The notes beneath the pieces are model-generated. The model was not told the origin of the DNA. It saw nothing but the letters and a program-made list of their open reading frames with translations, and ran no database searches. Shown piece by piece: positions 10,268-64,000 of a DNA stretch of 64,000 bases; within the stretch, counting starts at the first letter, position 1, and each line of letters starts with the position of its first letter. Origin of the DNA: Planctomycetota bacterium (GTDB lineage Bacteria > Planctomycetota > UBA8108 > SXIK01); contig CBDCXR010000004.1 in assembly GCA_965223845.1 (NCBI GenBank), forward strand, positions 5,632,001 to 5,696,000, in the 5' to 3' direction. Position numbers and translations under genes: made by a program.

Positions 10268-10443
10268 TGAACGAGATGAAGAGAGAGAGGAAGAAGCTCG
10301 TTTGAACTCTGCTGTGCTGTGAGCCTTTGCAACCGCAAGACGAAAAGCGAGAGTCTCGTCGATTCTCGCCTCGATCACTTCCCACCCTAATTCTCTCTTC
10401 TCTTTCTTCGTCTTCCTTCGCGGTCCTTCGCGCTCTTCGTGTG
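10221..10443. repeat. 223-bp element bounded by perfect 38-bp inverted repeats (MITE/REP-like)
   Basis: 10221-10258 CACACGAAGAGCGCGAAGGACCGCGAAGGAAGACGAAG is the exact reverse complement of 10406-10443. It sits between convergent genes. Confidence 0.92.
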
Positions 10444-10453
10444 AATCTCTTCC

Positions 10454-11325
10454 TCAGGACCCACCGCGACTGGAGAAAGAACAACGGGCTCCACCTTCGA
10501 GCACGCGATAGTCCTGCCCCAGTTCGTCGCACCGACGGACGAACTCCTCCGGGGTCGCCGTATTGAACGTGAACATGTCGTAGTGACACGGAATCGCGCT
10601 CTTCGCCCCGATCGCGTGTGCGAGCTCCGCCGCTTCGCGCCCCCAGAGATTCCCCGCGACGCGCCGCTCGGGCGCGCGTCCGTTGATCGGGAGAAACGCG
10701 AGGTCGACTCCAAACGGTCGCAGCCACTCGACCATGCCGTCGTAAAGGATCGTGTCGCCGCTGTGGTAGACGGACCACGGCCCGAAGCGCGCGACGTAGC
10801 CGAGATACCGGTAGCGCCCGTGCTCATCGCGTTCGAGCTCTTCGTGGGCGGCCGGAACGGCGTGCAACTCGAACGCACCGATCGTCACCTTTTCGCCGGC
10901 GTCGATCGACCGGAGGGAATCGGGCGCGACGCCGAGCCGCTCCGCTGCGAACTCGCGATTCGCCGACGGAACGAGGATCTCGAGGTTCTTGCTGGCACGG
11001 CGAATCGCGGTCAGCGTCTCACCGTCGAGGTGATCGGTGTGGTTGTGGCTCGAGCTGACGATGTCGACGAAGTCGAGCCGATCGGGCGCGACGACTCGCT
11101 CCGACATCCGTACGTGCGGCTTATCGGTCGCCGCGTACTTTCGGGTGAGCGAATCCGAGAGATACGGATCGAACAACAGATGCCGGCCGAGCCACTGCAC
11201 GAGAAACCCGCTCTGGCCGAGCCACCAAACGTGCACGGACTCCTCGCCACTCCTCGCCGCGTCCACGTCGGCGAGGAACGCGTCGTCCTTTTGCGCGGCG
11301 GGGATGAGCTCGCGCCCGGATTCGC

Positions 11326-11329
<4 letters not shown>
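10454..11329 (-). CDS. MBL-fold metallo-hydrolase (UlaG-like lactonase family)
   Basis: WLGQSGF, DPYLS, SHNHTDHLD (HxHxDH), YHSGDT, IPCHY. ATG at 11329 overlaps the upstream stop (ATGA). Confidence 0.9.
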
Positions 11330-12359
<1,030 letters not shown>

Positions 12360-30500: not shown

Positions 30501-32350
30501 CTCACCTCGACCGGGCGATCGAAGTCGGAAGCGCCATGGGCGACGAGCACGTCGCGGCGTTCGATCGAATCTACCGCGGGGAGGCTCTATTCTTTCTCGC
30601 CGAGTACGAAGGCGCGGTGCGTGCGCTCGAGGCGGAAACCCGATCGACGCTGCCGACTCGAGTCCGTCAGATGGCTTTCGCACGCCTCGCGCTCGTTCAC
30701 GCGATGACGGCGCTCGAATCCAAGGCGCAGGCGGCTATCGCCGCGCACGCGAGCCTCGCCAACGAACGACCGGTGCCGTTTCTCGATGCATGGGACGACC
30801 TCTTTCTCGGGTGGGCTGCGTCGCTGCTCGGTGATCGCGAGCGCGTCGAAGAACGCCTCGCGCGCGCGGAGCAGTTCTTCGCGCGACACGGCTTCGCACC
30901 GGCTCACGCTCTTACGCGCTGGGTGCGCGCGGAGAACGATCTCCTCGCGGGCGATCTCTCTCGCGTGAGCGAGGCGCTCCGCGGGGTATCCGACGGGAAC
31001 CATCTCACGGCCGTACTCTGGCTCCTTCTCGAGGCGCGAGTCGCCGCCCACGCACTCACCGAGACGCGGGATCGCCAGCCGGTCGGCGATCTCATCGCGC
31101 GATCGGGAGCGGCGCTCGTCGGGAATCCGCTCCCGGAGTGGGAAGCGCGCCTCGAGCGGATTCGCTCCAGGCTCTGGGGCGGGAGAAAGGAAGAAGCGGT
31201 CGACGCGGATCGCGCGCGCTGGGTCGCACACCTCGAAGCATCCGATCGAGATCGCTACCTCGAGAGCGAACACTGGCGCGCTTGGACGGCGATCGATCGC
31301 CTCGACGTGCCGAGCGAACAGCCCGTCGCGCTGGATCGCGCGGAGCTTCCCACCGCGAGCGCGGCTTGCGGTCCGCTTCGCGACGGTTTGGTCACGCGAT
31401 CCCCTGCGATGCGGCGCATCGCGCAGACACTCGACCGCGTCCGCGGAACGGACATCCCGATTCTGCTCACGGGCGAGACGGGAGTTGGAAAAGACTTCAT
31501 CGCGAACATCATTCACGCGGAGAGCGAGCGCGCGAATGAGCCGCTCGCAGTCATCTCCTGCGCAGCTCTCGCGCCGGAGCTCCTCGAAGCGGAGCTCTAC
31601 GGCGCCCGGGCGGGCGCGTACACGAGCCTCGAAACCGACCGTCCGGGCATCCTTCGCGAGGCTCACGGCGGCACCGTTCTTCTCGACGATATCGGTGCGC
31701 TCGGCGCGGAGTCTCAAGCAAAGCTCCTCCGAGTCTTGTCCGCGCAGACGTTTCGGCCGCTCGGGAGCGACGAGGAAATCGAGGTCGACGTTCGCTTTCT
31801 CTTTACGTCCGCGCGCGATCTCGAAGCGGAGGTGACCGCAGGGAACTTTCGCCGCGATCTCTTCCACCGAATGAGCGTTCTCACGATCGCCGTGCCTCCG
31901 CTTCGCGAGCGCGCGGAAGACCTCGAAGCGCTCGCCGGAATCTTTCTCGCCGAAGAGACACGGGCGAACGGATCGCGTCAGGAGCGGATCACGAGCGATG
32001 CCCTCGATTGGCTCCGCCGCCGCGCCTGGCCGGGAAATGTGCGCGAGTTTCGCAATCTCCTCGCGCGGATCCGCGTCGAAGACTCGCGCTCCGTCTCGGT
32101 CGACGCGCTCGAACGAGTGACGAAAACGGACGACACGGTCCACCTCTTCCCGGGAAACGTGCTCGAGGTGGAGACGCTTCCCGTGCTCAAGGAGCGACTC
32201 GAGCGCGATTATGTCGTCTATCACTTCCGGCGGCTCGGCGGGGACACCAAGGCGCTGTGCCGATTCCTCGAGCTCGGTCGACGCCAACTCTATCGGCGCT
32301 GCGAGCGGCTGGGGATTTCGCTCCGCGCGGAGCGAGCGCGGCTGCGGTAG
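27539..32350 (+). CDS. Ser/Thr kinase - STAND(AAA_16) - TPR - sigma54-interacting AAA+ - HTH fusion protein
   Basis: Kinase: GRGGAG, IALK, HLDVKPSN, DFG, MAPE. STAND: VGRAAEL...GSPGAGVS, LVDDLH. TPRs: ILNNLGIVY. bEBP: GETGVGKD, GAYTSL, LLDDIG, WPGNVRE. C-terminal HTH. Confidence 0.9.
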   Translation: MPSDDPHRLAPAGFGPRYETIRTLGRGGAGTVYLVRDAYLEQEIALKILDTPETRDAVEETQREFTLLAQIDHPAIARAYDFGYFGDRPYFTSEYIRGALPDAPIGESDALARIGLDIAEALEFLHAHRILHLDVKPSNIAIRRDPPSHAVLLDFGLWRKAGPPATGRLRGSLPFMAPEYFSGGELGPWTDAYALGVTLYRLATGRFPRPGAAGAQLSSAEDVPHPSDERAWFPAPVPPSQVVRGLSSDFDRVILECLALDPAARAISPRDRLATLTRRGSWSRRLTRPHAMHETVGRAAELDLIDEFLNDDEAPALVVTGSPGAGVSHVLREAKRRAQIAGRSSYLERAEALDARPGSVLRCLAAHLGEDADARRRWREFSDRLQRPRKARHHGQRDSTADAERRLRRVSELSLALGALSNPLVLLVDDLHAFDEISVGLIADTLRAIAAFEADRRPPIRIAVGYREEGSSVSLLREISQLVEGESLGRTLTVLPLSATDTNRLFTAAARDLGEEAPTTTKSAIARYEETRGLPARIIEAARVVGRDAKQRSRREEKEPPILPDDEGSLAVLRILQLLRTPASAKEIAGVLDRPRPQIERDLARLAERHLVRGEDDDLRRGTRWRALDGLAPVSSGATKTEERRTHRAVGRMLVTRAKTGDEAAIVEAAGHFVRAGDRTAVAEIGAEAARYLTSTFQNCAARDMLARVLKALPTRARARRVEVALEMADLYSRTGDLERGIDLLRSILAGTPAPSGSTRLRVLLSLAVLYGRRGEFKHASALFGEVIPRDVESVRGLEREELIHFVNEYAAMKGFTGDYEGAIALCESAMKLAGRSRSTAIRDAVLNLYATRAAVAVRTYDYSGASHHFESALQIAEAIGSVTNRAVILNNLGIVYNQCDRYADAIRAFREAERTCVQLDEGPSLVSIQCNLAILYAKRGEFAAQERAIAEAERLHPAAVGQRQAFFFDHARGLCSLYRGRFAEARAHLDRAIEVGSAMGDEHVAAFDRIYRGEALFFLAEYEGAVRALEAETRSTLPTRVRQMAFARLALVHAMTALESKAQAAIAAHASLANERPVPFLDAWDDLFLGWAASLLGDRERVEERLARAEQFFARHGFAPAHALTRWVRAENDLLAGDLSRVSEALRGVSDGNHLTAVLWLLLEARVAAHALTETRDRQPVGDLIARSGAALVGNPLPEWEARLERIRSRLWGGRKEEAVDADRARWVAHLEASDRDRYLESEHWRAWTAIDRLDVPSEQPVALDRAELPTASAACGPLRDGLVTRSPAMRRIAQTLDRVRGTDIPILLTGETGVGKDFIANIIHAESERANEPLAVISCAALAPELLEAELYGARAGAYTSLETDRPGILREAHGGTVLLDDIGALGAESQAKLLRVLSAQTFRPLGSDEEIEVDVRFLFTSARDLEAEVTAGNFRRDLFHRMSVLTIAVPPLRERAEDLEALAGIFLAEETRANGSRQERITSDALDWLRRRAWPGNVREFRNLLARIRVEDSRSVSVDALERVTKTDDTVHLFPGNVLEVETLPVLKERLERDYVVYHFRRLGGDTKALCRFLELGRRQLYRRCERLGISLRAERARLR

Positions 32351-32361
32351 TCGCCGGAGCG

Positions 32362-33795
32362 CTACGGGTTTCCGGGTGACTCCGCCTCGTACCAGTAGTC
32401 GGGCAGACCGTCCTTCGTCTCCCGCAGGATCTCCACGATCTGCGTGCGCTCCTTGGTCCCGAGATGCGCGAACTTCTCGGGGAGCTCGTTCGCCGTGAGG
32501 ACGTTCCAAAGGCGGCGGTACACGAGGTCTTTCATGACCGGCGGGAGCGCCGCGAACGCGCGCGAGTAGATCATGAAGCTGCACCGATGCTTGAAGAGCC
32601 GCCGCTCGAGATGGAAATCGCGGAGCGAGCGGCCGCTCGAGCTCGCGCGCCGCGTGCGGAGAAAGGCTTTCTCGAATCCCTCGCCTCCTCGAACGCCGCC
32701 TCGGAGCTTGATCTCGCCGGCAAAGAGGAGCCTCTCGACGACGCGATCCGCTTCGCGCTCGACGATTTTCCGCCCGACTCCGCGCAGGCCGCCCAGGGAA
32801 TCGTCGGCGTGCCGGGCGACCGCTTCATCACCGAGCTTCGTGCGAACGTCGCGCTCGTCGAGAGGCGCATCCGCCGCGCCCACCGTACGCTCGAGAACAC
32901 TCCGGCGATAGAGCGCTTGCCGCGTCTTGAAGTTCGCGCGGACGAGCGCGTTGTGAACACCGAGCTGATGCTCGAGCACCATCAGCGCGACGATGTCGCT
33001 CGTCGGAACGAGATAGGGTTCCGTCCAGAAGTACTGCGCGAGCGACGTTTGGTTCGCTCCACGATCGACGTCGAACTCGACCGAGGTCGACGTGCGCGAT
33101 GCGATCGCGTTCCCCATGTGACGTTGGCTGCCGTGGGTCCCCGTGACGTACCAACCGCCCCAACGCTCCTCGAGCGGGCTCCGATCGGTGGTGACGAACG
33201 ATCCTGCCGAGAGAATCGGGAAGCCGCGCTCGTCGGGGTAGACCGAGCGAACGAGGAGGCCGGGAACTCGCCCCGTCCTCCCGCTCGCGTGACACGAGAG
33301 GCAGCCGTTGTCGCGGCGAAAGCGCGGCCGCTTCGTCCCGCGCGGGTCGAGCTGGTAGAACGTCGTGCCGAGCTCCGGATCCGAGCAGGCCACTTCGATC
33401 GCTCCGTTCTGCACCCAGCCGACGTAGCAATCATCGGAGAAATAGACCGCGCGCGGAGTCGAGGGAGAGATCGCGCGGAGCTGAAAACTGGTCTGGGAGA
33501 AGACGAGCACCTGCGACTCGACCGGAACCTCGAGCCGCTCGAGCACTTCGCGCAGAAACGCTCGCTGATCCTTCGGATCCGACGACCAGCCGTCGCGCTC
33601 GATCGTCTTCCCGAGTGCCGCGACGGCGTCCTTCGGACTCGCATCCGAGTAGCGAATCGGCGGGTACTCGAAGTCTTCCCGCTGGGCGAACACCGGCGCA
33701 CTGAGCGCGAGCACGATCAGCGCGGAGCGCCCCGGGGCGCCGAGCCGAACGCGCGCAGAGCGACGGGAATTCCGAGCGTTCGATTGGATGTACAT
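32362..33795 (-). CDS. Secreted monoheme c-type cytochrome-like protein (PVC-type conserved hypothetical)
   Basis: Signal peptide ending VFA-Q, CLSCH heme motif, SQVLVFSQTSFQ, RWGGWYVTG, SDIVALMVLEHQ. Confidence 0.8.
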   Translation of the reverse strand: MYIQSNARNSRRSARVRLGAPGRSALIVLALSAPVFAQREDFEYPPIRYSDASPKDAVAALGKTIERDGWSSDPKDQRAFLREVLERLEVPVESQVLVFSQTSFQLRAISPSTPRAVYFSDDCYVGWVQNGAIEVACSDPELGTTFYQLDPRGTKRPRFRRDNGCLSCHASGRTGRVPGLLVRSVYPDERGFPILSAGSFVTTDRSPLEERWGGWYVTGTHGSQRHMGNAIASRTSTSVEFDVDRGANQTSLAQYFWTEPYLVPTSDIVALMVLEHQLGVHNALVRANFKTRQALYRRSVLERTVGAADAPLDERDVRTKLGDEAVARHADDSLGGLRGVGRKIVEREADRVVERLLFAGEIKLRGGVRGGEGFEKAFLRTRRASSSGRSLRDFHLERRLFKHRCSFMIYSRAFAALPPVMKDLVYRRLWNVLTANELPEKFAHLGTKERTQIVEILRETKDGLPDYWYEAESPGNP

Positions 33796-36682: not shown

Positions 36683-39600
36683 TCAGCGGCGGTCGCGGCG
36701 CGTCATTTCCCCCCGAAGTGTTCTCACATCGAGTCCGACTTCGCGGAGCCACGCGTAGAGCCTCGACTTCTTGACGCCCAGCTCTGCGCGCATGGCGCCG
36801 AGGTCGCCAGCGTGAGCTCGGAATCGGTCGCGCAGGTAGGCGCGGTCTACGATTCTTCGCACCGCTGCGATGTTCCGTCCGGCGAGGAGCGACCGGGGAA
36901 CGTCGGGATCGACGCCCCCGTCTTCGCTCGGAGTGAGAAGCTCCGCCAGATCCTCCGCGGTGATTCGCTCGGCGATCGAGCGTTCGACGAGAACGCGGAG
37001 CGCCAGCCCTTCGAGCTCTCGCACGTTTCCTCGCCACGGCTGCCCGGAGAGGAGCGCGAAGGCGGCGGATTCAACGACGGGAACGCGCCGCCCGAGCTTC
37101 CGCGCATGCCGCGCGAGCAAGTGCTCAAAGATCGGAGGGATATCCTCCGGTCGATCGCGGAGCGGCGGTATCTCTAGCGTGAGCGCACCGATGCGAAAGA
37201 GGAGATCCTCCCGCAGCGCTCCCGCTTCGTCGCCCGCGCGCGGCAGAGCACGCGAAGTGAACAGGAAGCGGACGTCGATCGGCCGATCGTCTAGACTTCC
37301 GAGCGGACGCACCGTCTGCCGATCGAGGACGCGGAGAAGCTGCGCCTGATGCGCGAATGGTAGATCGGTGATGCCGTCGACGAGGAGCGTCCCTCCCGAG
37401 GCGTGCTCGAGGATGCCGCTTCGGCTCGCCTCCGCGCCGGTGAACGCGCCGGCGGCGTGACCGAAGAGCTCCGCTTCGAAGAGCTCCTCGGGCAGCGCTC
37501 CGCACGCAATGACCTCGAAGGGTTCCGCGGCACGCGGGCCGCGGTCGTGAAGAACCCGCGCGAGAAGGTCCTTTCCGACGCCGGTCTCACCCACGATGAG
37601 AACGGGCTGATCGACGGCGGCGAGTCGCAGCGCCGAAGCGACGAGATCCTCCATTTGCCGCGACCGGACGACGAGCTCGGCGCCGCCGGTTCGGCGCGGC
37701 GGAGTCGTCGATCGAGCCGACCAGCGTTCGACTTTCTCGCTAACCCGCTCGAGTCGAGAAAACCTCTCTTGAGCGAGGTAGAGTTCGCGTCGGCGTGCGG
37801 GAAGCGACGCGACGATGATTTCGCGAGTCTGCCGCGCGCGGTGCACGTGGTGCCGGGCCGCCTCACGTTCGCCGCGACGGTCGGCGAGAACGGCAAGCTG
37901 CTCCTCGATGCGGCAGTCGATCTCGAGGAACGAGCGGCCGACGATCGCTCCCGCGGCCTCCTCGACCAATCGCTGCGCGCGATCGATGTCGCCGAGAAAC
38001 GCGCTCGCTTCGCTTTCACCGAGTGGCGAGAGGACGGAGAGCGCACGGTGGTCGATCGCGGGTGCGCGGTGAAGTGCGAGCTGGAGCTCGCGCACCTCCC
38101 CGCGGTCACCGGCCCAAAGCGCAACGTAGAGCTTCGCGACGCGCAGCCAGCGGTCGAACGCCGGACAGCGGAGATCGCGAAGACACCGTTCGGCTCGCCG
38201 GAGGTGCTCGCGCGCGGGTGCGAATTCGGTCGCCGCAACCGCGAGCCAAAGTCGATCGCAGCCCTCGAGAAAGCCGACGGGATTCGTCGGCAGAGCCTCG
38301 GCTTCAGCGGCGAAGGCAGACGCTTTCTCCGGCGAGCCGAGCCAGCGCTCGAGCGCGGCGCGGCGCGCGAGCTCCATCCGCCGGACGAGCTCGAACCCCG
38401 GCCGCGGGGAGTTCGGCTGCCTTCGAGCGAGGATCCTCAAGGCATCATCGAAGCGCCCCGAGATCATCTTCGCTTCGGCGAGGTAGACGCTGCCGAACCG
38501 CACCATGTACTCGTCGCTCAGCTCCCGGCCGATCGGAAGCGCGCGCTCGAAGCACTCGATCGCCGTCGTTTCCTCACCGAGAAAGTGCTCGACGAGCCCC
38601 GCGGCAAAGTCGACGAAGAACTCGAGCCGCTCGCCCGATTGTTCGCGGAGGAGTCGGCGCGCGCGGCGAATTTCATCGCGCGCTTCGGTCGCGTCCCCCG
38701 TCTTCGCCGCGATCAGGGCGATGTTGCACGCGATCTGAACGAGAGAGCGGCGCTCGCCCGACGTCGAGATCAAGCGCGCCGAGCGGCGAAAATAGTGACG
38801 TGCGCGAGCGTAGCGGTCGAGCTGATTGAATACGATTCCGAGGTTGTTGAGGATCAGCGCCTGCGGTCCGCGGATCCCTTCTCGCTCGGCGAGACGCAGC
38901 GCCGCAGAGAGATGGTCTCGAGCCTCCGCGAGCCGCATCCGCCGAAGCTCGAGATGGCCGAGAGTCGCACGAAGCGTGACCTCCGCACCGTCCACATCCG
39001 CAGAGCCGCCCCTACGGATTTCATCGAGCGCGGCGAGTCCGCGGCGACACGCAGCGTCCGCCTCGTCGTAGTCTCCGCGAAGAGTGTGGAGCTCCGACAG
39101 CTCGCACTCGATGCGAACGGTTTCGCTTCGATCTACGGCCGGCGACGAGATCGCGAGCGCATCGCCGAAGAGACGGACCGCCTCATCCGGCTTCCCGGCG
39201 CGGTGAAAATGCGCCCCTAGCCTCCGAAGGAAGCGCACGCGATCGCTCCGCGGGAGCTTGCGCAAGACCTCGGCTCCCAACGGTTCGAGAGCCGCGATTC
39301 CTTCGAGGTGATCGCCCTCCTCCGCCCGGAGCTCGCTGATCTCTTCGGCGAGCTCGAATCGCCGGCGGAGAGCACTCTCGCTCGCGAGCGCAGCCTCGAG
39401 GAGCGCGATCGCCGTCTGCGCACGCCCCGCACCGACGAGCTCGGAGACCAGCGAGAGCGCGGCTTCGCGTCCGCGAGCTTGCTGCCCGGTCGCGAGACGG
39501 AGACGAACGAGAAGCGTTCGCTGGCGCAAATTCGCCGCCGGCAAGCGACCGAAGTAATCCCGCGCGCGACGATGGAACTCCGCCGCGCGGATCTCCGGCA

Positions 39601-41437
39601 TGGCGCGGCGGACTCGCTCGCCGAGCTCGTGCTCCGCGAGATAGTAGAGTTGACTCCGACCCTCGGGCGACGACGAAACCACTTCGTTCTCACGTAGATC
39701 CCTGAGAACACGGCTCGCGGTTCTCGTCTTGAGCCCGGCCGCTCCGGCGATCTCGGCCACGCGCATCGGCGCGCACAGAAGCGACATGGTCTCGATCACG
39801 ACTCCCGTCTCGCCCTCGAGGACGCCCGGTTCATCGACCCGACGTTCGCTCCACGGGATGCGAGCGAGTGGGTCTTCCGGAACTCGGCCGTCGCGCGCGT
39901 ACTCTTCGAGAACGAACCGCGCGAGTTGGCGGAGGCGAAGAGGTGTCCCATCGACGTCGGCGGCCCACGCTCGAAGCTGCCCGCGCACGACGCGAAGAGG
40001 ACGAAGAAACCGCTCGAGCAAGGTGATCGCGACACCGCGCACGAGACCGCCCAGCGCGAGCAGCTCGCATCCGCTGCCGGCTCGCGCGGATGCGAACGAA
40101 GCGGCCTCCGAGCTCACCGCGGCGACGAAGAGCCCACGGGCGCTCTCTCTTCGCTCGGAGCACGCAAGAGCGAGCGCCTCGACGGTCGCCCGACTCTCTG
40201 CGTCGGCCTCGTCCAGGTTGTCGACGAGAACGACGAGCGGAAACGAGTCGCCGGCGAAGTACGTAGCGACGGCGCGCGCCGCGCGTTCCGGTGGCGACCC
40301 ACCGTGCTCGCGAGCGAGCGGTTTCAACCACGCCACCGCCTCCTTCCCGCGTCCGCGGAATGCGCGCCGGAGTTGGCGCTCGAGAGACTCCGAGCTCCCG
40401 CCGGGCAGAAACTCGACCCCCGCGACGTCGAGCCCCCGCCACTGCGCGCGACGGCGCGCCTCGGTGAGGAGCCGCGATTTGCCGACGCCGCGCGGACCGG
40501 TGATCCAAAACGCCCGAGCATGTCCCTCGCTCACCTCTCGGAGCGCGACCTCGACTCGCTCGAGTTCCGCTTCGCGGCCGAGAGTGATCTCGCCGGGTTC
40601 ACCCGCCGGGCGCTCGATCTCACGTGAGCCGACCGCGTGCGCGAGCGCGCGACGAAACTCCCGCGCGCCGCCGAATCGTCGGTCGGGATTCGCGGCCATC
40701 GCTTTCGCGATCACTCGCTCGAGATCGAGCGGGACTCGAGCCGGCCAACCCGGAATGTCGCGCGGCAGGCGCACGTCGCCGTCGCTGCGGCCGGTGAGGC
40801 GGTAGAGGAGCAACCGGCCGACGCGGGCGATATCCGCCGCCGGCCCCTGCGCTTCGACGCGGAGAAAATCCGCCCCGCGCGGCGAGCGCGACGAGAGGAG
40901 GGCGGTCGAGCGAAGGTCTCCGCCCCCGGGTCGGAGCCCGAAGTCGATCAGCACGGTTCCCCGGTTCGCGTCGCGCGCCTGAATCACGTTCCCCGGGTGA
41001 AGGTCGATCGGGGAGATCTCGTGGGCGTGGAGGTAGTCGAGCGCTTCGAGAAGATCGAAGATCGGCCGGAGAAGCGCTTCGGCCGAAAGAGCCTCACCGC
41101 CCTCGCCCATCGCCGGCCCGGGCTCGAGCGGGAGTCCGTCGACGAAGCTCCGCGTGTAGAAGGGGAGACGCCTCTCGCCCTCGGTGTAGCCGAAGTCGTA
41201 CGCCGCTGCGATCTGCGGATGGCGGAGATCGGCGATGACGCGGAATTCGTCGCGGAGTCGCTCGAGACCCTCGTCGGAGAACACCTCGGGACGAATCAGC
41301 TTGAGCGAGACGAGCTCGCCGCGCTGCTCATCGTCGACGAGGTAGACCGTACCCACGCTGCCCGAGCCGAGTCGACGAACGACGCGGTAACGCCCAGCGA
41401 AAACGAAGTCCGAGCTGAACGCAGGGGAGCCGCTCAT
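36683..41437 (-). CDS. Pseudokinase - STAND(AAA_16) - TPR - sigma54-interacting AAA+ - HTH fusion protein
   Basis: Kinase-like: GSGSVG, VSLK, PIDLHPGN, DFG. STAND: LGREAEL...GPRGVGKS. TPRs: ILNNLGIVF. bEBP: GETGVGKD, GAFTGA, LVDGIT, WRGNVRE. C-terminal HTH. Confidence 0.9.
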   Translation of the reverse strand: MSGSPAFSSDFVFAGRYRVVRRLGSGSVGTVYLVDDEQRGELVSLKLIRPEVFSDEGLERLRDEFRVIADLRHPQIAAAYDFGYTEGERRLPFYTRSFVDGLPLEPGPAMGEGGEALSAEALLRPIFDLLEALDYLHAHEISPIDLHPGNVIQARDANRGTVLIDFGLRPGGGDLRSTALLSSRSPRGADFLRVEAQGPAADIARVGRLLLYRLTGRSDGDVRLPRDIPGWPARVPLDLERVIAKAMAANPDRRFGGAREFRRALAHAVGSREIERPAGEPGEITLGREAELERVEVALREVSEGHARAFWITGPRGVGKSRLLTEARRRAQWRGLDVAGVEFLPGGSSESLERQLRRAFRGRGKEAVAWLKPLAREHGGSPPERAARAVATYFAGDSFPLVVLVDNLDEADAESRATVEALALACSERRESARGLFVAAVSSEAASFASARAGSGCELLALGGLVRGVAITLLERFLRPLRVVRGQLRAWAADVDGTPLRLRQLARFVLEEYARDGRVPEDPLARIPWSERRVDEPGVLEGETGVVIETMSLLCAPMRVAEIAGAAGLKTRTASRVLRDLRENEVVSSSPEGRSQLYYLAEHELGERVRRAMPEIRAAEFHRRARDYFGRLPAANLRQRTLLVRLRLATGQQARGREAALSLVSELVGAGRAQTAIALLEAALASESALRRRFELAEEISELRAEEGDHLEGIAALEPLGAEVLRKLPRSDRVRFLRRLGAHFHRAGKPDEAVRLFGDALAISSPAVDRSETVRIECELSELHTLRGDYDEADAACRRGLAALDEIRRGGSADVDGAEVTLRATLGHLELRRMRLAEARDHLSAALRLAEREGIRGPQALILNNLGIVFNQLDRYARARHYFRRSARLISTSGERRSLVQIACNIALIAAKTGDATEARDEIRRARRLLREQSGERLEFFVDFAAGLVEHFLGEETTAIECFERALPIGRELSDEYMVRFGSVYLAEAKMISGRFDDALRILARRQPNSPRPGFELVRRMELARRAALERWLGSPEKASAFAAEAEALPTNPVGFLEGCDRLWLAVAATEFAPAREHLRRAERCLRDLRCPAFDRWLRVAKLYVALWAGDRGEVRELQLALHRAPAIDHRALSVLSPLGESEASAFLGDIDRAQRLVEEAAGAIVGRSFLEIDCRIEEQLAVLADRRGEREAARHHVHRARQTREIIVASLPARRRELYLAQERFSRLERVSEKVERWSARSTTPPRRTGGAELVVRSRQMEDLVASALRLAAVDQPVLIVGETGVGKDLLARVLHDRGPRAAEPFEVIACGALPEELFEAELFGHAAGAFTGAEASRSGILEHASGGTLLVDGITDLPFAHQAQLLRVLDRQTVRPLGSLDDRPIDVRFLFTSRALPRAGDEAGALREDLLFRIGALTLEIPPLRDRPEDIPPIFEHLLARHARKLGRRVPVVESAAFALLSGQPWRGNVRELEGLALRVLVERSIAERITAEDLAELLTPSEDGGVDPDVPRSLLAGRNIAAVRRIVDRAYLRDRFRAHAGDLGAMRAELGVKKSRLYAWLREVGLDVRTLRGEMTRRDRR

Positions 41438-49790: not shown

Positions 49791-50792
49791 TCACACGGAA
49801 ATGGTGGTCTCCGCGATCGGCTGAGCCGCGTCGCGTTTCGGCGGTGCCGACGAGCGACGCTTCTCGCGGTCCCCCCGGCGGCGCTCGCGATCTCGCATCG
49901 CCGGTCCGCGACGACCACCACCGCGGCGCAAGCTCGGGCCGCGCCCGTCTCCTCGGCCGCGATTCATTCGGGGGCCTCGGGGCCCGCCCTCGCTCTTCAT
50001 CCGCGGACCGTGCGAACCGCTGCGGAATCCTCGCTGAACCCAAGGTGGCGCGCCGCGCCCTCGACTCATGCGAGGTCCGCGAGAGTCGCCGCGCAAACCG
50101 CGCTTCACCCACGGCGGCGCGGAGCGACCGCGACTCATACGAGGACCGCGCGAGCCGCTTCGATGACTCCGCTCGACCCAAGGCGGCGCACCGCGGCCAC
50201 GATTCATGCGAGGTCCTCGCGGACCGCCTCGCATTCCCCGCCCGACCCACGGCGGAGGCCCTCGGCGACCGCTTCGCAGCGATCCGCTAGAGCCCCGTGC
50301 CCAAGGCGGTCCGCCGCGACGCGCACTCGAATCACTCCGGTCGCGACCGCGACGCGCACGGTGGCGATCCGGTCGCTCTTTCGCCTCCGCTCGCCTTCGG
50401 CTCTTCTTTGCTTCCTGCCGTTTCTTCGCCTTGGCCTCCGCGGCCTTCCTTCGAGCGGCCTTCTTCGCCTCTCGCTTCTTTTTCTCGGCGCTCGCCCGAT
50501 CGGACTTCTTGGCGCCGTCGCCCGCCTTCTCTTTCTTCTTCTCGACGATGCGCTTTTCACCGTCGCTCGATCGCCGCGGACGCGGCGGTCCCCCTTCATC
50601 GCCTCCGCGTCGACGGAAGCGGAACCTCGGGCCACCGGGACCGATTCGCCCCGGAGGACCGCCGCGCCCGCGAAGCCGTCGCTCGCCGTCGGAGTCTCTT
50701 CGATCATCGCCTCGAGCTTCGTCCTGACCCACGGTAGGTGAGGCGAAGAGCGCAACTAAGATGAGCGCTGAACAAACCTGGATTCGTCGCAT
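49791..50792 (-). CDS. Secreted, highly basic low-complexity protein with 23-aa tandem repeats
   Basis: Signal peptide and AGGAAGGAG RBS. Lys/Ala helix, then repeats of PPWVxRxxRxxxRGPRMxRGRxA. Lies downstream of a two-component pair. Confidence 0.75.
   Translation of the reverse strand: MRRIQVCSALILVALFASPTVGQDEARGDDRRDSDGERRLRGRGGPPGRIGPGGPRFRFRRRGGDEGGPPRPRRSSDGEKRIVEKKKEKAGDGAKKSDRASAEKKKREAKKAARRKAAEAKAKKRQEAKKSRRRAEAKERPDRHRARRGRDRSDSSARRGGPPWARGSSGSLRSGRRGPPPWVGRGMRGGPRGPRMNRGRGAPPWVERSHRSGSRGPRMSRGRSAPPWVKRGLRGDSRGPRMSRGRGAPPWVQRGFRSGSHGPRMKSEGGPRGPRMNRGRGDGRGPSLRRGGGRRGPAMRDRERRRGDREKRRSSAPPKRDAAQPIAETTISV
49960..50260 (-). repeat. 69-bp coding tandem repeat (about 4 copies)
   Basis: The ACCCA(C/A)GG unit (PPWV codons on the minus strand) recurs near 50038, 50107, 50176 and 50245. 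Confidence 0.85.
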
Positions 50793-54210: not shown

Positions 54211-57200
54211 TCACTCGGTGGGGATTCGATTGAGCGTGTAATGCGCGACCCTCGGCCACAAGCCGTCCGTCCCGTCACCGCCGACGGCATCGTCGACTTG
54301 GATATCGTAGAGGAATCCCGGGCGAAGCGCGCCGACCTCGAGCCGGACCGAACGCCCGGTCGCTGCGAGTCGCGCCGCGATCACCTTCGCTTCGTGCCGA
54401 TCACGATCGGGCGTCGCGTATCCGCCCTTCCAGATTCGCTGATATCCGGAAACGCGATAGCTACCCGGGTCCACCGCCTTCGCTCGTGCGACTGCGCGAG
54501 TGAATTCGATGTCGAATCCGCCGCGCCACGCGCGCACTTCGCGGATTCCCGTCGGCACCTCGTCCGCCGCGAGCTCGAGGCGCAAGATCGAGCCGACGTT
54601 CGCGCCCCCGCCCCAGCCCGAATCGTGCAGATTCCCGACGTAGAGCCTTCCCGCCGGGGACACCGCGCAGCTCAGTGGACCGAGTAGACGCGGGCCATCG
54701 GGTCCGCTTCGACTGAGTGGGTAGCAAGCGCCTTGGTACGTATCCCCGATGCGATCGAGCGTAAATCGAATGAGCATCCGATTGTCGAGCTCGCAACCGA
54801 TTCCGTGCCCTTCGAAGACACCGAACGCGCCGCCCGCTTCGAGAAACGTGATCCCGTTCACGCTGCGCGTCCAGGGATGCGGGATCTTGATCGCCGGTGG
54901 CTCGCCTCGAACCGCTCGATCCGGCTCGGGATCCGTAAGGCTCGGCATTCCGTAGATCTTTCCCGCGCGGAGATGGTTGATCTCGTTGAACGGATTCCCG
55001 ACGCCCTGGTTGTCGCTAAAGAAGATCGCGCCCGTGGAGTTTTTCGCCGCTCCCACGCTGTAGCGAACGCCGCGGGCGACCGCCTCGATATCGCCGCTCA
55101 CCGATACCGCGATCGCCTTCCCGCGATAGAGTGTCGTCGCGCGATCGCGCGCGGCCTGGGCGTAGTCGCTCCCGAGAAACGCGTAGATACGATCGCCCCG
55201 CGGAATGACACCGACCGTCCAGTCGTGATAGTCGTGCGTATATCCCCAGCCCGTCGCGACGACGTCGGCGCGATCGAGAAAACCGTCGCCCGTCGTATCT
55301 CGAAGCCGAAGGATCTCCGGTTTGTGACTCACGAGGAGCGTGCTGCCGTCGAAGGCGAGACCGAACGGCGCGGCGAGCTGATCGGCGATCACGCGGGCGT
55401 CGTCCTCGAAGCCATCGCCGTCGGCATCGCGGAGGAGATACACGTCTCCCTTGAGCGAAGCGACGACCGCCCCTTCGCCCGCGGGCGGGAAAGCGAAGGC
55501 AGTCGGCATGATTCGGCTTGGAAGCGGAAGCTGCTCGACGCGAAAGCCGGGGACGAGCGGGAGCCGCTCTCGAGCGCGTACGATCCCGGTCTCGACGGGC
55601 GGTGCTGCACTCACTTCGAGCGGCTCGCCGGCTTCGAGTGCGTAGCGAAGAAGCGCGATCGACTCGCCGCCCGCCGCCTGCTCTGCTCGCCAGCCAAAGA
55701 CGCGATCGCCCTCTCGCGACCCTCCCGTCTCGAGCGTGCCGACACCCGCGGCGCCGTCCTCGATCGCCGCGAGCGGAAGCGAGCGCTCCCCGCTCGTTCC
55801 CGCAACCTCGACGCGGCCTCCCGGGGAATCGAACGCGAGCGCACCTCTGGCTCCGCGAACCTCCAGCGAGGCCGCGAGCTCGGAATCGAGCGCGGCGAAG
55901 ATCCAAACGTTCCGCTCGCCGTCCGTTCGAACCCGAATGCGTCGCTCGAATCCGCGCCGCGCGCCCGCCTCGGCCCACGCGCGGATCGTCTCGGAAACGT
56001 CGACGACACCGCTCTGTTCGAACTCGAGGCGATAGTCGACGCGCACACCGTCCTCGACGTGGCGCCAGCCGCGAAGTCGTCCGAGCGACTGCGCGTCGCG
56101 ACGGACGCGGTCCCATCCGGCCTCCGATCGGATCCCGATGCTCGCGACGCGAGGGAAACGCCCGACGATCGGCGACCCGAGCGGCTCCCAGAGCCAGGTC
56201 TTCCCTCGCGTGTACTCGCCGGCAAACCGTCCGCGCCACCACGCGCGAAGCGAGAGCGCGTCGAGGTCGAAGAGGACGTTTTGTCCGCCGAGAAATCCGA
56301 TCGCGAACGCTCGCGGCGTCCATCCCTCGCCGAATGGTCCGCGCGCTCGAAACACGTCGCGAACGACGATCGCACGCGCGGCAGTCGGCTCGAGCTCGCG
56401 GACGAGACGATCGGCGGGCGGTGCGGAGAAGCTCGGCGAGTTGATCGCCTCCCAGATCGCGCTCATCTGCGCGTCCCAATCGCCACCGAGAGCGGGAGAC
56501 GATCCAGCCGCGATGGCCGGCATTTCGATGCCGGGCACGATGCGACTCGGATCGCGCATCCACCGCCGAAAGAACTCGGGGCGCATCCAGCGCGAAAGAC
56601 TCGCGAGGTTGACGCCGCGAACGTTCGGCGCGACACCGGCCGGCGAAAACGACGCGAGATCGTGACAGGACGAACACCCGAACCCCGCGGCGCCGACGAG
56701 CCGATGCCCGACCGCGAATCGATCCGTCGGCGGGTCCTCGCGCGCGGGTGGTTCGAGAAGCACCTCCGGGACGCGATCCTCGGCCGCGAACCAAGACTCG
56801 ATCGCGCCTTCTTCTTCGGGCGAAAGATGAGCGAAGCTCGGCATCCGGACGCGAAGCCAGGGACGACGCTCGACGGGAGTGCGCAGCGTGCGCGCAATTA
56901 AGCCGACGGGGAACTTATCGCCGGCCGCCGAGAGCGCGGGAGGCCGGAGCGCGCCCTCTGCTCCGCGGAGGGAATCATCGCGCGCGGTGACCGCCTGAAT
57001 GACTTCGCCGAGCGCGGTGCGGCTGCCGCGGCGGTGGCAGGAAAAACAGCCCTCCGCGTCGATCGCGAGCGCACCGTGGGTCTCCTCGGTGAGAGCTGGG
57101 CTCGGCGATCGGAGATACGCCTCGAGCGCACGTCGTTCCTCCGGAGTCACGTCGTAGCGGGGACGAAACGGCGAGGATGGCGATCGCGGATGGAGACAAC

Positions 57201-58515
57201 TTCGAGAGGAATCGAATGCCGCCGGCGAGAGCGTGGTCCGCTCGGGCGACGCGACGGGATCGGGAAGCGCGTGGCACGCTCCACAGCGCCGAGCCGCGAT
57301 GATCGTTTTCGCCGACGAAGCGTCTCCGTCCCCCGGCGCTGCGGATTCGTCGTGCGTTCGCGACACCTCGCCTTCACCAGAAAGCGACGTCAGAAACGCC
57401 ACCACGTTGTCGAGTCCGCCGTCGCGCCACGGGAGACGCGGCCGGTGGGTCTCGAGCGCTTGTTCGCTCCCAGCGCCCGAGAGCCATCGGCGGAGACCAC
57501 GGACATCGCGATGGTCTACCGCACGATCGAGAGGCCCTCCAGCGTGCCGTTTACCAAGGCCCACGCCGCCGAGCGTGTGGCACGCGAGACAACCGCCTGT
57601 CTCGACGACGCGACGCCCGGCGCGAGCGTTCGGATTCTTCGTCTGAGGGCTCTTCTGCGTGGGCCGCGGATCCGTTCGAGCGGCCGCGGAAGATGCCGCC
57701 GCGAGATAGCGCGCGATGGCGCGAACATCGTCCTCCGCGAGGTCGAACTCCGGCATGCGCGCTCCGGGATGCGCGGCCGCCGGAGACCGCACGCGCGCCC
57801 GGAGATGACTCTCGGTGAGCGTCGGTGCGCGAAGCGCCGGCGCCGAACGAGGCGACGGGAGTCCGGGAATGGCGTGACACGCGGCACACGAGAGTCGGTG
57901 CGCGAGACGACGCCCGCGCTCGCGTTCCGTGAGCGCGCGCGACAGCGGACCGTCGCGATGGAAAACGGCTCCGCCGCCGAGCGGTTCCCACGGCAAGAAC
58001 GATGTCCGCCAATACGCGCTGATTTGCCCTCGCGTCGTCGCGCGGTACTCGACCTCGAGCTCAGTGAGTCCGAAGGGGAGCGCCATCTCGAAACGCACGG
58101 GCGTACCGGGTTCGCGGATCGAGATCGATCCCGATTGAGTGCCGAGGCGGTAGCGCACTTCGCCGGGGTCACCCAGTATCGCGAGCTCGTAGGTTTCGTC
58201 GTCGGGGACGTCGACGAGTCCGCGCCAGCGGCGGACCGTGCTCGGCTGGACTCGGCCGGCGAGCCGCGTGACGATCTCGGCCGGCTCGGCTCCGACCGGC
58301 GAAGCGCCGTCCGAACGCTCGAGGGTCGAGAGAAGACCCGGACGCAGGTTGCGGTCATCCCCCGCGGCGTTCTCCGCCGGCGATGCGCTCGCGGGTATCG
58401 AGGCGGCGATCCAGCTCGCGAGCGCGAGCGCCCGCGCGGCGTAGCGCGCGGGGACCGAGCGCTCTGAGCTGAGCGGAATGGATCGACGAGCGTTCAAACG
58501 GACGGCACTTCGCAT
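54211..58515 (-). CDS. Large secreted pentaheme c-type cytochrome with C-terminal beta-propeller (PVC-type)
   Basis: CxxCH five times (CAACH, CLACH, CGACH, CFSCH, CSSCH). Propeller motifs DADGDG, SDNQG, EINHL. Confidence 0.85.
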   Translation of the reverse strand: MRSAVRLNARRSIPLSSERSVPARYAARALALASWIAASIPASASPAENAAGDDRNLRPGLLSTLERSDGASPVGAEPAEIVTRLAGRVQPSTVRRWRGLVDVPDDETYELAILGDPGEVRYRLGTQSGSISIREPGTPVRFEMALPFGLTELEVEYRATTRGQISAYWRTSFLPWEPLGGGAVFHRDGPLSRALTERERGRRLAHRLSCAACHAIPGLPSPRSAPALRAPTLTESHLRARVRSPAAAHPGARMPEFDLAEDDVRAIARYLAAASSAAARTDPRPTQKSPQTKNPNARAGRRVVETGGCLACHTLGGVGLGKRHAGGPLDRAVDHRDVRGLRRWLSGAGSEQALETHRPRLPWRDGGLDNVVAFLTSLSGEGEVSRTHDESAAPGDGDASSAKTIIAARRCGACHALPDPVASPERTTLSPAAFDSSRSCLHPRSPSSPFRPRYDVTPEERRALEAYLRSPSPALTEETHGALAIDAEGCFSCHRRGSRTALGEVIQAVTARDDSLRGAEGALRPPALSAAGDKFPVGLIARTLRTPVERRPWLRVRMPSFAHLSPEEEGAIESWFAAEDRVPEVLLEPPAREDPPTDRFAVGHRLVGAAGFGCSSCHDLASFSPAGVAPNVRGVNLASLSRWMRPEFFRRWMRDPSRIVPGIEMPAIAAGSSPALGGDWDAQMSAIWEAINSPSFSAPPADRLVRELEPTAARAIVVRDVFRARGPFGEGWTPRAFAIGFLGGQNVLFDLDALSLRAWWRGRFAGEYTRGKTWLWEPLGSPIVGRFPRVASIGIRSEAGWDRVRRDAQSLGRLRGWRHVEDGVRVDYRLEFEQSGVVDVSETIRAWAEAGARRGFERRIRVRTDGERNVWIFAALDSELAASLEVRGARGALAFDSPGGRVEVAGTSGERSLPLAAIEDGAAGVGTLETGGSREGDRVFGWRAEQAAGGESIALLRYALEAGEPLEVSAAPPVETGIVRARERLPLVPGFRVEQLPLPSRIMPTAFAFPPAGEGAVVASLKGDVYLLRDADGDGFEDDARVIADQLAAPFGLAFDGSTLLVSHKPEILRLRDTTGDGFLDRADVVATGWGYTHDYHDWTVGVIPRGDRIYAFLGSDYAQAARDRATTLYRGKAIAVSVSGDIEAVARGVRYSVGAAKNSTGAIFFSDNQGVGNPFNEINHLRAGKIYGMPSLTDPEPDRAVRGEPPAIKIPHPWTRSVNGITFLEAGGAFGVFEGHGIGCELDNRMLIRFTLDRIGDTYQGACYPLSRSGPDGPRLLGPLSCAVSPAGRLYVGNLHDSGWGGGANVGSILRLELAADEVPTGIREVRAWRGGFDIEFTRAVARAKAVDPGSYRVSGYQRIWKGGYATPDRDRHEAKVIAARLAATGRSVRLEVGALRPGFLYDIQVDDAVGGDGTDGLWPRVAHYTLNRIPTE

Positions 58516-59019
58516 GGAAGATAAGGGGGAGAACCGGCGAGAAGCAGCGATCGCCAGATTCTAATGGACGCGCGGAGGGGGACGCGCCGGCGTCCGGCTC
58601 GACTAGGCAGTTGTGAGCGCATATAGATCGTATCTTCGCGACCTATCGATCTTTCGAGCGCGACCGCGGGATAGGCCCCGGTTCGGGCGAAAGCTCTGCG
58701 GAGAACGGTCGCCTTCGATCCCTCGAGCGCCGGAACGGACTCCGGAAGCGTCCGCGGGGTTCCAACGGAGGCGGAATCGCTCGGCGTGGGCTCCGTTAGA
58801 CGCGAAAACTGTAGTGTTCCGGCGACTCTCGTCGTCTTAAGATGCGCGATGGTCGCGTGTTCGATGCGCGGAGGTTTCCGTGGGAACCGCCGCGTGGCGC
58901 CCGCGCGTTGTATCCAACTGCGGGCCTCTCGCGAGGCGCCAACGCGTCCAAGGTACGAACCGAACGAAGCGGATCCCGGGGGAAAACACCGGGGGGGACC
59001 AATACGGAGAGGGAACCCT

Positions 59020-60066
59020 ATGAATCGAGCTCTCAGATACGGCGCGCCGGTCCTCGGCCTGGCCGCGGCGCTCTGGCTTGGCGCGTTCGCGAACGCGACG
59101 GCGACCGCCCCCGCCAAGCTGCAGGAATCGCTGAGCCTCGGCGAGCACTGGTACGGCCCGAAGATCACGGCGAAGGATCTTCTCGGAAAGGTCGTCCTCT
59201 ACGAAGTCTGGGGGAAGAACTGAGGCCCCTGCATCAGTGCGATGCCGCAGCTCGTGAAGCTGCAGAAAGACTACAAGGACCAGGGCTTCACCATCATCGC
59301 GAACCACGCTCAGAACATCCCGAAGGATGAGGTGGTGACGTATCTCCGTTCGGCGAAGGTGAACTTCACCGTGACGAGCGGCGGGCGCGTCGACGTGCCG
59401 AATCGCCTGAGCGGAATCCCAGCGGCGTACCTATTCGACTCGAGCGGGAAGCTCGTCCTCTCCGGACGACCCGCGACGATGAAGCAACAGATCATCGATC
59501 TCATTCAGAGCGAGCCGCATTTCCTCGCCGCCGGTCGGTCGTACAAGAAGCTCGGGAAGATCGCCGCGTCGCTCAAGCGGTCGAAAGCGTACGCCTCGAT
59601 CCTGAAGAAGCTCGACAAGGAAGAAAAGAAGGGCGGTGAGGCCGCCGAAGAAGCCGCGTATCTCTCGAGCCGCATTCGGAACTACGGAAAAGATCGCTAC
59701 CTGGCGGCGAAGAAGCTCGAACGGAGCGACGCCTTCGGGGCGATGTCGATCTACAACGAGCTCAAGGTCACCTTCAAGGGCGAGAAAGCCGGCGACAAGG
59801 CCGACGAACGCATCAAGGCCCTGAAGAAGAACAAGGAGTTCCAAACCGAGCTCAAAGCGGGTGAGATCGCGGCAAAGATCCTCGCCGAATGCGAGAAGCT
59901 AACCGTGCCGCGCGGCCGCTCGAAGCCGGACCTGAGCGGCGGCCAGAACAAGCGCATCGCCGGTAAAGTGCGCGGAATGATGGCCGTTCTCCTCAAGCGG
60001 TACGGCGAGACGAACGCGGCGAAGAAGGCGAAGGCTGATCTCAAGGACTACGGGTTCAGTTTCTGA
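59020..60066 (+). CDS. Selenocysteine-containing thioredoxin-like (TlpA/redoxin) protein, UGPC active site
   Basis: ATG 59020 with GGAG RBS and signal peptide. GKVVLYEVWGKN-TGA-GPC continues in frame to 60066. The TGA at 59221-59223 occupies the first Cys position of CxxC. Confidence 0.88.
59224..59265 (+). promoter_or_regulatory. Putative bacterial SECIS element
   Basis: Stem GCAGCT (59247-59252) / AGCTGC (59258-59263) with loop CGTGA, about 29 nt after the UGA. Additional GCATC/GATGC stem at 59231-59245. Confidence 0.6.
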
Positions 60067-60097
60067 GGTCGGTTTCTCTCAGACTCGTTCGAAAGTG

Positions 60098-60139
60098 AAA
60101 CACCCGCGTGCGGAAGACTCCGCGCGCGGGTGTTTTTTT
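60098..60139 (+). terminator. Rho-independent terminator
   Basis: AAACACCCGCGTGCGGA-AGAC-TCCGCGCGCGGGTG followed by TTTTTTT, directly after the redoxin gene. Confidence 0.9.
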
Positions 60140-60182: not shown

Positions 60183-60791
60183 CTAAGAGCCGAGCGGTTC
60201 CTGATCGCTGTCCGATTCGTCGATCTCATCGAGCTTCGCGTCTGCGGCAACGTCATCGTCGTAGATATCGAGCAGAAACCAGCCCGCCAGAAAATCTACG
60301 AGTTCTCCTGGGTTCACGCCGAGGCGGAGCCCACCGGCGAGAACGCCAGCGGAAACCTCGAGTTGGGTGTACCTCGGCGCTACGCGTCTCCAGTCCCCAG
60401 CCTCTTCGAAACCACCGAAGTATCCACGGGGATCGGTGTGCGGGTGCCAGTACGGGAGCAAGAAAAACGAGCTGACGTGAAACTCTTTCCTTCGACGGTC
60501 ATCGTCGAATCCCCAAAAACCGTGAAGGAACCCCCAAGGGGGCGCGAAGCTGCAGTCGAGGAACTCGAACTCCGTCCACTGTCCTCCGATCAAACCTCGG
60601 CCCGTTGCGCCCGACGAACTGCAGTACACACCTGGTCCCCAAGGCCCAACCTGGGCTTTCACACCAAAGGTCTGGGTCTCCACCGTTGCCGTGAAGATGT
60701 CGAGGACGTCTCGGCCTCGGTTCGACCAGTACGACGCGCAACCACACGCCATCGAAACGACGCAGACCGCAAGCCCTCGTAGGAACATCAT
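60183..60791 (-). CDS. Hypothetical lipoprotein
   Basis: Lipobox-like MACG-C, then YWSNRGRDVLDIF...GVNPGELVDFLAGWFLLDIYDDD. Confidence 0.75.
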   Translation of the reverse strand: MMFLRGLAVCVVSMACGCASYWSNRGRDVLDIFTATVETQTFGVKAQVGPWGPGVYCSSSGATGRGLIGGQWTEFEFLDCSFAPPWGFLHGFWGFDDDRRRKEFHVSSFFLLPYWHPHTDPRGYFGGFEEAGDWRRVAPRYTQLEVSAGVLAGGLRLGVNPGELVDFLAGWFLLDIYDDDVAADAKLDEIDESDSDQEPLGS

Positions 60792-61032
60792 TCCTAGATT
60801 CGGTCGGCTCGGTCCGGAATGTTCCCGGCTCGATCGCCAAGTGCTCGTCGGGTGCATCGCGATACGACTTTTTCGTGCGGACGACAATTGGACAAGGGAC
60901 GACGTATTCCGGATTTAGTTTCTGATTCCGGCCTCGCTCAGTCGGATCCAATCTGAAACACGCGCGAGTTTTCTCCTGAGAAATCGACGCGCAGACTTGA
61001 GCTGCGAGTCCAGCTCGAACGCCTACGAAGGA

Positions 61033-62737: not shown

Positions 62738-64000
62738 ATGTCCCGTACATTCCACCGCACCGTGCTCGGCTTGGCCCTTTCTATCGTCGCGTCGGCGCCC
62801 GTGCTGCCCCAGGACGGCCTCTTCGACGAGGGAAACGTCGAGGAGGTGCCCCTCGGCGGAGTTCGCGTTCTCGGAAGCGCGATCCACGTTCGGCCCGATC
62901 CGCTTTCTCCGAAGGAAGAGCTCATCCGACTCACCACTGGGAAAGAGGGCGACGTCGGAAGCGTCTGGTTCGAGCAGCCCGTCCCGCTCGGACCGCTCCC
63001 CCTTCGCCTCGAGTTCGACCTCTTCGTCAAGTCGGCGAGTGCGGACCCGCCCGACGGGCTCGCGGTCAACTTTCAGTTCGAGAGCGATCTCGCCCTCGAA
63101 GGGCGCGGCGGTGACGGCGTCGGTGCGTGCTTCGAACCCGGGCGTGAGCATCTCTCCTTGGTGTTCGATCAGCGCGACGACGGCTCGCTCGATCCCGAGA
63201 CGAGCTGCGATCTCGCTCGCGGCCCTCGAACTTGCGACTTCGAGGTCCACCGGAACTCTTGTCCGGGCGATGAGCTTCCGCTCGCAAGCAGCTCCGCGCT
63301 CGGCGAGGACGGACCGGATCTCGTTGCTTTGGGAATGGATCGCCGGAAGCTTCGGCTCGCGGTCGAGTACATCCCGCCCGGCGTCGTCGAGGAGCCGAGC
63401 GAAGGCCACATCCGAGTCTCGGTCGAGCCGGCTGGAGCAGTGCGAGACGGCTGGGAGCAGACCTTTCCCGCGCGCCTGGTTTTCGACGACGCCGGCCCCC
63501 GAGGTCCCGCCGCCTGGCTCGGCCTCGCGGGCTCGTCGGCGAGCGCAGATACCGCCTTCGAGGTCGAGAACCTCCGCGTCGTCGTCGTGCCGGAGACTCC
63601 GAGCGGCGACTGGAATCGGTCGATCGAGGCCGTCGCGATTACCCCGAGCGATGAGGACGGTCTCTTCGATCTCCACGCCTTCGTGCGCCTCGATCCGGGA
63701 ACCGATGAAATTCCGCCGCGGCTCGATACCGAGGTCGAGTTTCGCGTCGACGGCGTTCCCGTCGGGGCAGCCACGATCGCGTCGGAAGCGGACGAAGAAA
63801 GTCTCGAGTCGGCTTTGCTCGCCGGAATCAAGCTCGAAGGCGGGGTGACCGTCGAAATTCACGCCCGCCCGGCCGACGGTGCGGCGCCCGAGATCGACTC
63901 TTTCGACGACGCCTCCCGGCACGTCTTCGGCGGAGTGGAGCACTGCTGGGATCGCGGACTCTCGAGTTTCACGATCGTTGAGAACGACGACGAAAGCTTC
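62738..64000 (+). CDS. Secreted protein with N-terminal legume(L)-type lectin-like domain (runs off window; absent from ORF track)
   Basis: GGAGG RBS, ATG 62738, signal peptide MSRTFHRTVLGLALSIVASAPVLPQ. Lectin-like motifs LIRLTTG...GSVWF...FDLFV...DPPDGLAVNF. No stop codon up to 64000. Confidence 0.75.
   Translation, partial: MSRTFHRTVLGLALSIVASAPVLPQDGLFDEGNVEEVPLGGVRVLGSAIHVRPDPLSPKEELIRLTTGKEGDVGSVWFEQPVPLGPLPLRLEFDLFVKSASADPPDGLAVNFQFESDLALEGRGGDGVGACFEPGREHLSLVFDQRDDGSLDPETSCDLARGPRTCDFEVHRNSCPGDELPLASSSALGEDGPDLVALGMDRRKLRLAVEYIPPGVVEEPSEGHIRVSVEPAGAVRDGWEQTFPARLVFDDAGPRGPAAWLGLAGSSASADTAFEVENLRVVVVPETPSGDWNRSIEAVAITPSDEDGLFDLHAFVRLDPGTDEIPPRLDTEVEFRVDGVPVGAATIASEADEESLESALLAGIKLEGGVTVEIHARPADGAAPEIDSFDDASRHVFGGVEHCWDRGLSSFTIVENDDESF

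Follow-up and report, generated by a model that had tools for sequence, protein, structure and literature searches.

The window (the whole stretch of 64,000 nucleotides analysed here) very probably holds, at 59020..60066 on the + strand, one gene for an exported UxxC selenoprotein that is decoded by SelB assisted by a SECIS hairpin and serves as an extracytoplasmic disulfide reductase. The gene has a conserved in-frame UGA at a Cys position, a covarying hairpin behind it and a thioredoxin fold; decoding by SelB, export and the reductase chemistry we infer from what is known of such families.

A single reading frame interrupted by UGA

The table-11 ORFs 58786-59223 and 59242-60066 lie in a single frame, as the initial annotation had proposed when it joined them. 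In the window sequence this frame runs from an ATG at 59020, through the in-frame TGA at 59221-59223, to an ordinary TGA stop at 60064-60066, and it yields the 348 aa expected by that annotation when the internal TGA is read as U. Translation around this codon gives YEVWGKN*GPC, so that the TGA indeed takes the first position of a CxxC motif. We place the start at 59020 because GC3 drops from 0.85 (ahead of the TGA) and 0.84 (beyond it) to 0.62 in the extension 58786-59019, and because a Shine-Dalgarno-like site in the window sequence, GGAGAGGG (59006..59013, +), precedes the ATG. GGAG-type sites likewise stand ahead of the starts in the related loci L001-L005. A start at 58786 was dismissed, the extension being non-coding-like by codon-position GC. 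In the protein collection, the two halves are deposited as separate entries, P0232 (67 aa) and P0002 (274 aa); the split is therefore normal pipeline output, and the prediction that standard pipelines would miss the gene was borne out.

When a codon score was trained on the window, position 59221 came top of 1245 TGA sites for two-sided coding signal. Five weaker TGA sites passed the scan, none of them with a redox motif, and this codon scan of TGA sites turned up no further selenoprotein candidate in the 64-kb window that was convincing. Repeated on relatives, it recovered the site in L001, L002, L004 and L005 and missed it in L003, which has 49% GC. The coding frame is conserved on both sides of UGA 59221. 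The gene appears to be monocistronic. A long hairpin with a T run behind it (60097..60139, +), seen by folding and unlisted by the consensus scanner, is a likely intrinsic terminator. Rfam gave no gathering-level match in the window, three chance-level rows falling near the terminator hairpin.

The UGA aligns with a conserved Cys in related genes

A protein search returned 84 matches in all, the closest set being the 39 with E <= 6e-40 (self excluded). Of these, 38 begin just after the CxxC motif and one is a full-length Cys form. Two of these 38, P0015 and P0025, correspond by N-terminal sequence to L001 and L002, and both loci carry TGA. A scan of GTDB genomes gave 28 loci, made up of 10 family members and 18 distant TlpA-like genes; all 10 family loci belong to Planctomycetota or a class of Planctomycetota. 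Here the first-Cys codon is TGA in five (L001-L005) and TGC in three (L008-L010), the position is Asp in L007, and L006, at a contig end, lacks this region. The proteins of L001-L005 share 39-49% identity with the window protein, and these five with the window gene are called the six TGA loci below. In all six, this TGA is invariant, as is the TGC codon of the second Cys. Among the distant TlpA-like loci, 16 of 18 have TGC or TGT, the other two having been missed by the search pattern. Cys occupies the Sec position in full-length relatives and in the solved structure PDB 28DB, which agrees with the assumption of the initial annotation that the homologous position is a conserved Cys; aligned to these Cys homologues, the UGA falls on that residue, and TGA stands there in five other genomes.

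The CxxC motif is lost in 11 full-length relatives and in L007, all of which keep the two-domain scaffold. These CxxC-less members include L007:5276-6280, P0111, P0118, P0134 and P0176, several of them nested among TGA forms, and they hint that the scaffold has a role other than catalysis. P0233 and P0234 are 71-aa N-terminal fragments that end in ...EIWGS, one residue short of the Sec position; they have either a shorter spacer before the UGA or a different stop.

Trees of 70 and of 160 rows were built without the hairpin columns, all 160 rows by FastTree. The window protein falls in a group of 40 rows (SH-aLRT 93, unstarred); 35 of them are TGA or truncated, 3 are motif-less and 2 are Cys, and one of the two Cys rows is long-branched. 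Nested in a starred (99) subgroup of 23 is the Cys protein P0086, apparently a reversion to Cys. Another starred group combines 9 truncated with 6 Cys rows, truncation being read here from proteins and not from codons. At least nine state changes are required on the tree, the root of which was not inferred. Passages of PMC1794560 lead one to expect a change from Cys to Sec; for want of a root, this direction is expected here, not demonstrated.

A hairpin downstream of the UGA covaries in TGA loci

Within the coding sequence, a hairpin at 59247..59263 (+), GCAGCT-CGTGA-AGCTGC, has a 6-bp stem and the loop C-G-U-G-A, with G at loop position 2 and a folding energy of -7.6 kcal/mol; the loop starts 29 nt past the UGA. 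The bSECIS consensus, in the portion of PMC13188914 that sets it out, comprises a loop of 3-9 nt, a stem of 4-16 bp, G in the first two loop positions, a distance of 16-37 nt from the UGA and an MFE <= -7.5 kcal/mol. With its 5-nt loop, 6 bp, G2-U3, 29 nt and -7.6, the window hairpin conforms to this consensus. On its own it does not stand out from chance: z was -0.15, -1.32, -1.15 and +0.09 under four cuts, not significant, and an equally good G[GU] hairpin follows 78 of the 1243 TGA triplets of the window.

Comparison of the six TGA loci is more telling. Helix columns 27-32/38-43 are paired in 35 of 36 cells and lie 29 nt downstream in every locus, and the loop has GU at positions 2-3 in 6/6. 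Pair 30-40 occurs as GC twice, CG twice, AU and UA, that is, in all four Watson-Crick types; this covariation is one base pair in six related sequences, and the structure was derived from the same sequences. Of 500 shuffled controls, 3 scored as high; slid controls gave 19-36%, and RNAalifold predicts the identical helix unprompted. In the three TGC loci, 10 of 18 cells are paired, and columns 30 and 40 never pair. The L001 change at pair 30-40 leaves the amino acid unaltered on either side and brings in a rare codon each time (CAA, 12/105 Gln; TTG, 12/336 Leu; eight genes). Folded as bare hairpins, L001 (-5.2) and L003 (-3.7, one mismatch) both miss the limit of -7.5 kcal/mol. Covariance model R1 found as strong matches its own six training sites only, the next match being L028, a TGC TlpA, at 23.7 bits. 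Thus the hairpin invoked by the initial annotation holds up in its position at 29 nt, its loop G2 and a covariation limited to TGA loci, and fails as a single hairpin distinguishable from chance. The inferred exported selenoprotein gains support from the conserved TGA at the Cys position together with covariation in TGA loci only.

The pairing of codon 77 with codon 81, and the GU contributed by Val79, make the constraint visible in the protein, where the SECIS print can be read as MP[Q/H]LVK[L/V]Q. Both residues of the 77/81 pair were present in 50 of 67 truncated proteins, as Q-L (40), H-V (5), H-L (2), H-W (2) and E-L (1). Hairpin-compatible residues occur in 46/50 truncated against 29/104 Cys forms, and Val79 in 49/51 against 25/104, counts that leave out 7 generic WATWC proteins and 11 motif-less ones. 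Fisher tests gave p 8e-15 and 4e-19, values we discount because a tree-aware test found five independent pairs with a sign test p of 0.5. The 77/79/81 pattern largely reflects shared descent and is a signature, not a separate proof.

A TlpA/ResA-type domain, predicted to be exported, with a basic helical tail

The first ~26 residues (59020..59097, +) form a predicted Sec-pathway signal peptide with no lipobox Cys, in keeping with the initial annotation. The prediction comes from hydropathy, which peaks at 2.1 over residues 11-21; in the structure model the N-terminus is disordered with pLDDT <50. A hydrophobic N-terminus is present in 99 of the 101 Cys relatives of full length; for a control stretch the number is 13. 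Residues ~30-165 (59107..59514, +) make up a TlpA/ResA-type thioredoxin-fold domain, as indicated by Pfam, the structure model and fold matches. Pfam Redoxin PF08534 scores 34.6 bits when the UGA is read through (cut-off 26.6); by itself the downstream ORF reaches 13 bits. The active site, delimited by comparison of the TGA loci, is U68-G-P-C71 (TGA GGC CCC TGC; 59221..59232, +). In the model (pLDDT 92) it starts the first helix, and Pro134, invariant across the alignment, sits at the cis-Pro loop position of the predicted thioredoxin fold. The best fold matches were 3OR5 (Z 16.2, rmsd 3.9, 134 aligned) and ResA 2F9S (Z 15.0, rmsd 2.9, 130 aligned).

The remaining 183 aa (59515..60063, +) form a basic C-terminal domain that is all-helical in the model and contains 17.5% Lys, much as the Lys-rich helical end had been described. 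No Pfam family covers it. A fold search with a single-sequence model (pLDDT 68) gave no clear match (best Z 8.5), Foldseek gave a best E of 0.33 with BamD-like rows at E 0.3 or worse, and no longer fusion forms of the family were present among 4359 candidates, which is weak evidence. Its helical hairpins have what we take to be a resemblance to TPR. A third Cys, Cys291 (59890-59892), lies in this tail; alignment A1 shows it in the majority of close relatives, though not in every one.

In the mechanism that we favour, SelB on the GU-loop hairpin, 29 nt downstream, would deliver Sec-tRNA to UGA 59221, and the product would be a 348-aa precursor routed to the periplasm by its signal peptide. TlpA/ResA thiol-disulfide reductases combine an attacking nucleophile with a resolving Cys; by analogy, Sec68 would attack as the nucleophile and Cys71 would resolve the mixed bond. 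As to electron donor, client and tail we can only guess. Re-reduction would most likely come from a membrane carrier of the DsbD/CcdA type. The basic helical tail might bind either a client protein or some anionic surface of the envelope, a client being suggested by the TPR-like hairpins. That the protein is a periplasmic disulfide reductase or isomerase with a client-binding tail has, in our judgement, about even chances.

Other readings of the UGA

It is very improbable that this planctomycete clade decodes the hairpin-directed UGA by means other than canonical SelA/SelB/tRNA-Sec, for instance through a selC*-like tRNA that inserts Cys, or by inserting Sec or Cys depending on the selenium supply. 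Such decoding, if true, would also explain the frequent alternation of Cys and UGA alleles on the tree. In one form of it, quite improbable in itself, the hairpin helps the UGA to be read as Cys, either by a selC*-type tRNA-Cys(UCA) together with a SelB paralogue or along some other non-canonical route. Sec and Cys are indistinguishable from sequence evidence, and selC* tRNA-Cys with a UCA anticodon and selB* do exist (PMC7609411). However, the passages of PMC7609411 assign selC* to Firmicutes, Thermodesulfobacteria, Nitrospirae and Proteobacteria with no mention there of planctomycetes, and canonical Sec sets have been reported in planctomycetes (passages of PMC4807772).

A true stop at 59221 is likewise very unlikely. 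The 274-aa ORF would then be made alone from ATG 59242 as a Cys-less cytoplasmic protein, with the 67-aa part as a leader. Met or Val is kept at position 75 in the TGA loci, and the relatives lacking CxxC indicate that the scaffold may function without catalysis. Yet conservation persists in the second Cys codon and in the thioredoxin fold's upstream half, a cut at the TGA would remove strands of the fold in the structure model, and 59242 is not preceded by a ribosome-binding site at the usual spacing. Moreover, the hairpin would sit just behind that start, and its covariation tracks the TGA.

A sequencing error or recent pseudogene is refuted by independent genomes and has next to no probability: the same TGA in five of them and the cut at this point in 38 of 39 near relatives show that it is no assembly error, and the frame has no other lesion. 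Genome-wide reassignment of UGA to Trp or Gly has just as little, being refuted by TGA as an ordinary stop (11 of 23 sampled window genes end with it, as does the selenoprotein gene itself) and by 186 uses of TGG at 66% GC.

Relation to known thiol-disulfide proteins

If it is a UxxC selenoprotein, as we prefer, the window protein has known counterparts, since UxxC selenoproteins with TlpA or redoxin domains are tabulated (PMC13188914, in Table 1; parts of PMC9312934). Like those listed as 'Redoxin family' or 'Thiol-disulfide isomerase-like', it has Sec first in the CxxC of a TlpA/redoxin domain, an in-frame UGA and a coding-region SECIS. It is set apart from them, by description, in its WGxxUxxC motif without a second Trp, its signal peptide and 183-aa helical tail, and its Planctomycetota hosts. 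With the ResA, TlpA and CcmG-DsbE reductases it shares the fold (Z 15-16), the CxxC position, the proline of the cis-Pro loop and a predicted N-terminal export signal; unlike them, it has a predicted Sec and an extra domain, and no conserved ccm or cox neighbours. No model of NCBIfam 20.0 reached its cut-off, the scores for ResA (NF002854, 48.5 vs 170) and TlpA (NF047696, 37 vs 230) lying far below. The closest solved relative is PDB 28DB, a 161-aa 'Redoxin domain protein' (E 8e-24, YWGINCPPC), for which a literature search found no paper. Most 330-360-aa members of the Cys-form WGxNCxPC family share the signal peptide and tail with the window protein; in contrast to it, both 28DB and the WGxNCxPC relatives have Cys, not Sec, and the 28DB chain is without the tail.

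Selenoproteins with signal peptides, truncated in databases, have been described for the SAO system in sections of 10.1101/2022.07.06.499078. The main text of the 2022 and 2026 selenoproteome reviews, as far as available to us, does not name Planctomycetota (PMC9312934, PMC13188914). A search of the literature, chiefly titles and abstracts and outside subscription papers and BSepDB entries, found no description of the two-domain family. It is apparently undescribed, and it may already stand catalogued under a generic redoxin label. The finding leaves the understanding of Sec decoding unchanged; it adds to Planctomycetota an apparently uncatalogued family of predicted exported selenoproteins. 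In dozens of database entries, labelled hypothetical, the protein is cut short at this very codon, and a single HMM would be enough to mend them. Pairs of close Cys and Sec alleles, for example the one involving P0086, offer a ready test of the benefit of Sec to a periplasmic reductase.

Sec machinery and neighbouring genes

A Pfam scan found no sel genes, either in the window or in the regions flanking L001-L006; it covered 66 neighbouring genes, 33 from L001-L006 and 33 from the window, plus 5 further window proteins. A tRNA scan found none in the window and, among the 10 family loci, a single tRNA-Ser, in L007. Four planctomycetes have full Sec sets and one has none (PMC4807772, in the portion consulted), which makes the Sec trait plausible but patchy in this group. 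Table S1 of BSepDB lists genomes analysed, not Sec users (PMC13326102, as excerpted).

No neighbour of the TGA gene recurs in L001-L006, and the neighbourhood is uninformative on function because it is not conserved. Divergent from the selenoprotein gene, 54211-58515 (-) encodes a protein of 1434 aa in which cytochrome c domains are accompanied by a weak PVC-type haem-binding/DUF7133 region; such a haem-binding neighbour would suit a ResA-like role. The convergent gene at 60183-60887 (-) has two stretches that resemble the LIC13411 family (75 bits, cut-off 150). In L001, at 10119-11555, a LysR regulator, presumably OxyR-like, lies divergent from a ferritin-like gene about 5 kb from the TGA gene, an arrangement not seen in the other loci.

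Elsewhere in the window, 17867-19990 (+), 32365-33714 (-) and 62762-64000 (+) are long, coding-like ORFs without a Pfam match. Adjoining a two-component system, the 333-aa ORF 49791-50792 (-) begins with a signal-like sequence and contains tandem Arg/Gly/Pro-rich repeats. Two proteins of 1550-1600 aa, encoded at 27539-32347 (+) and 36686-41356 (-), combine TPR and sigma-54 activator domains, the former also carrying a protein kinase domain and the latter an AAA domain.
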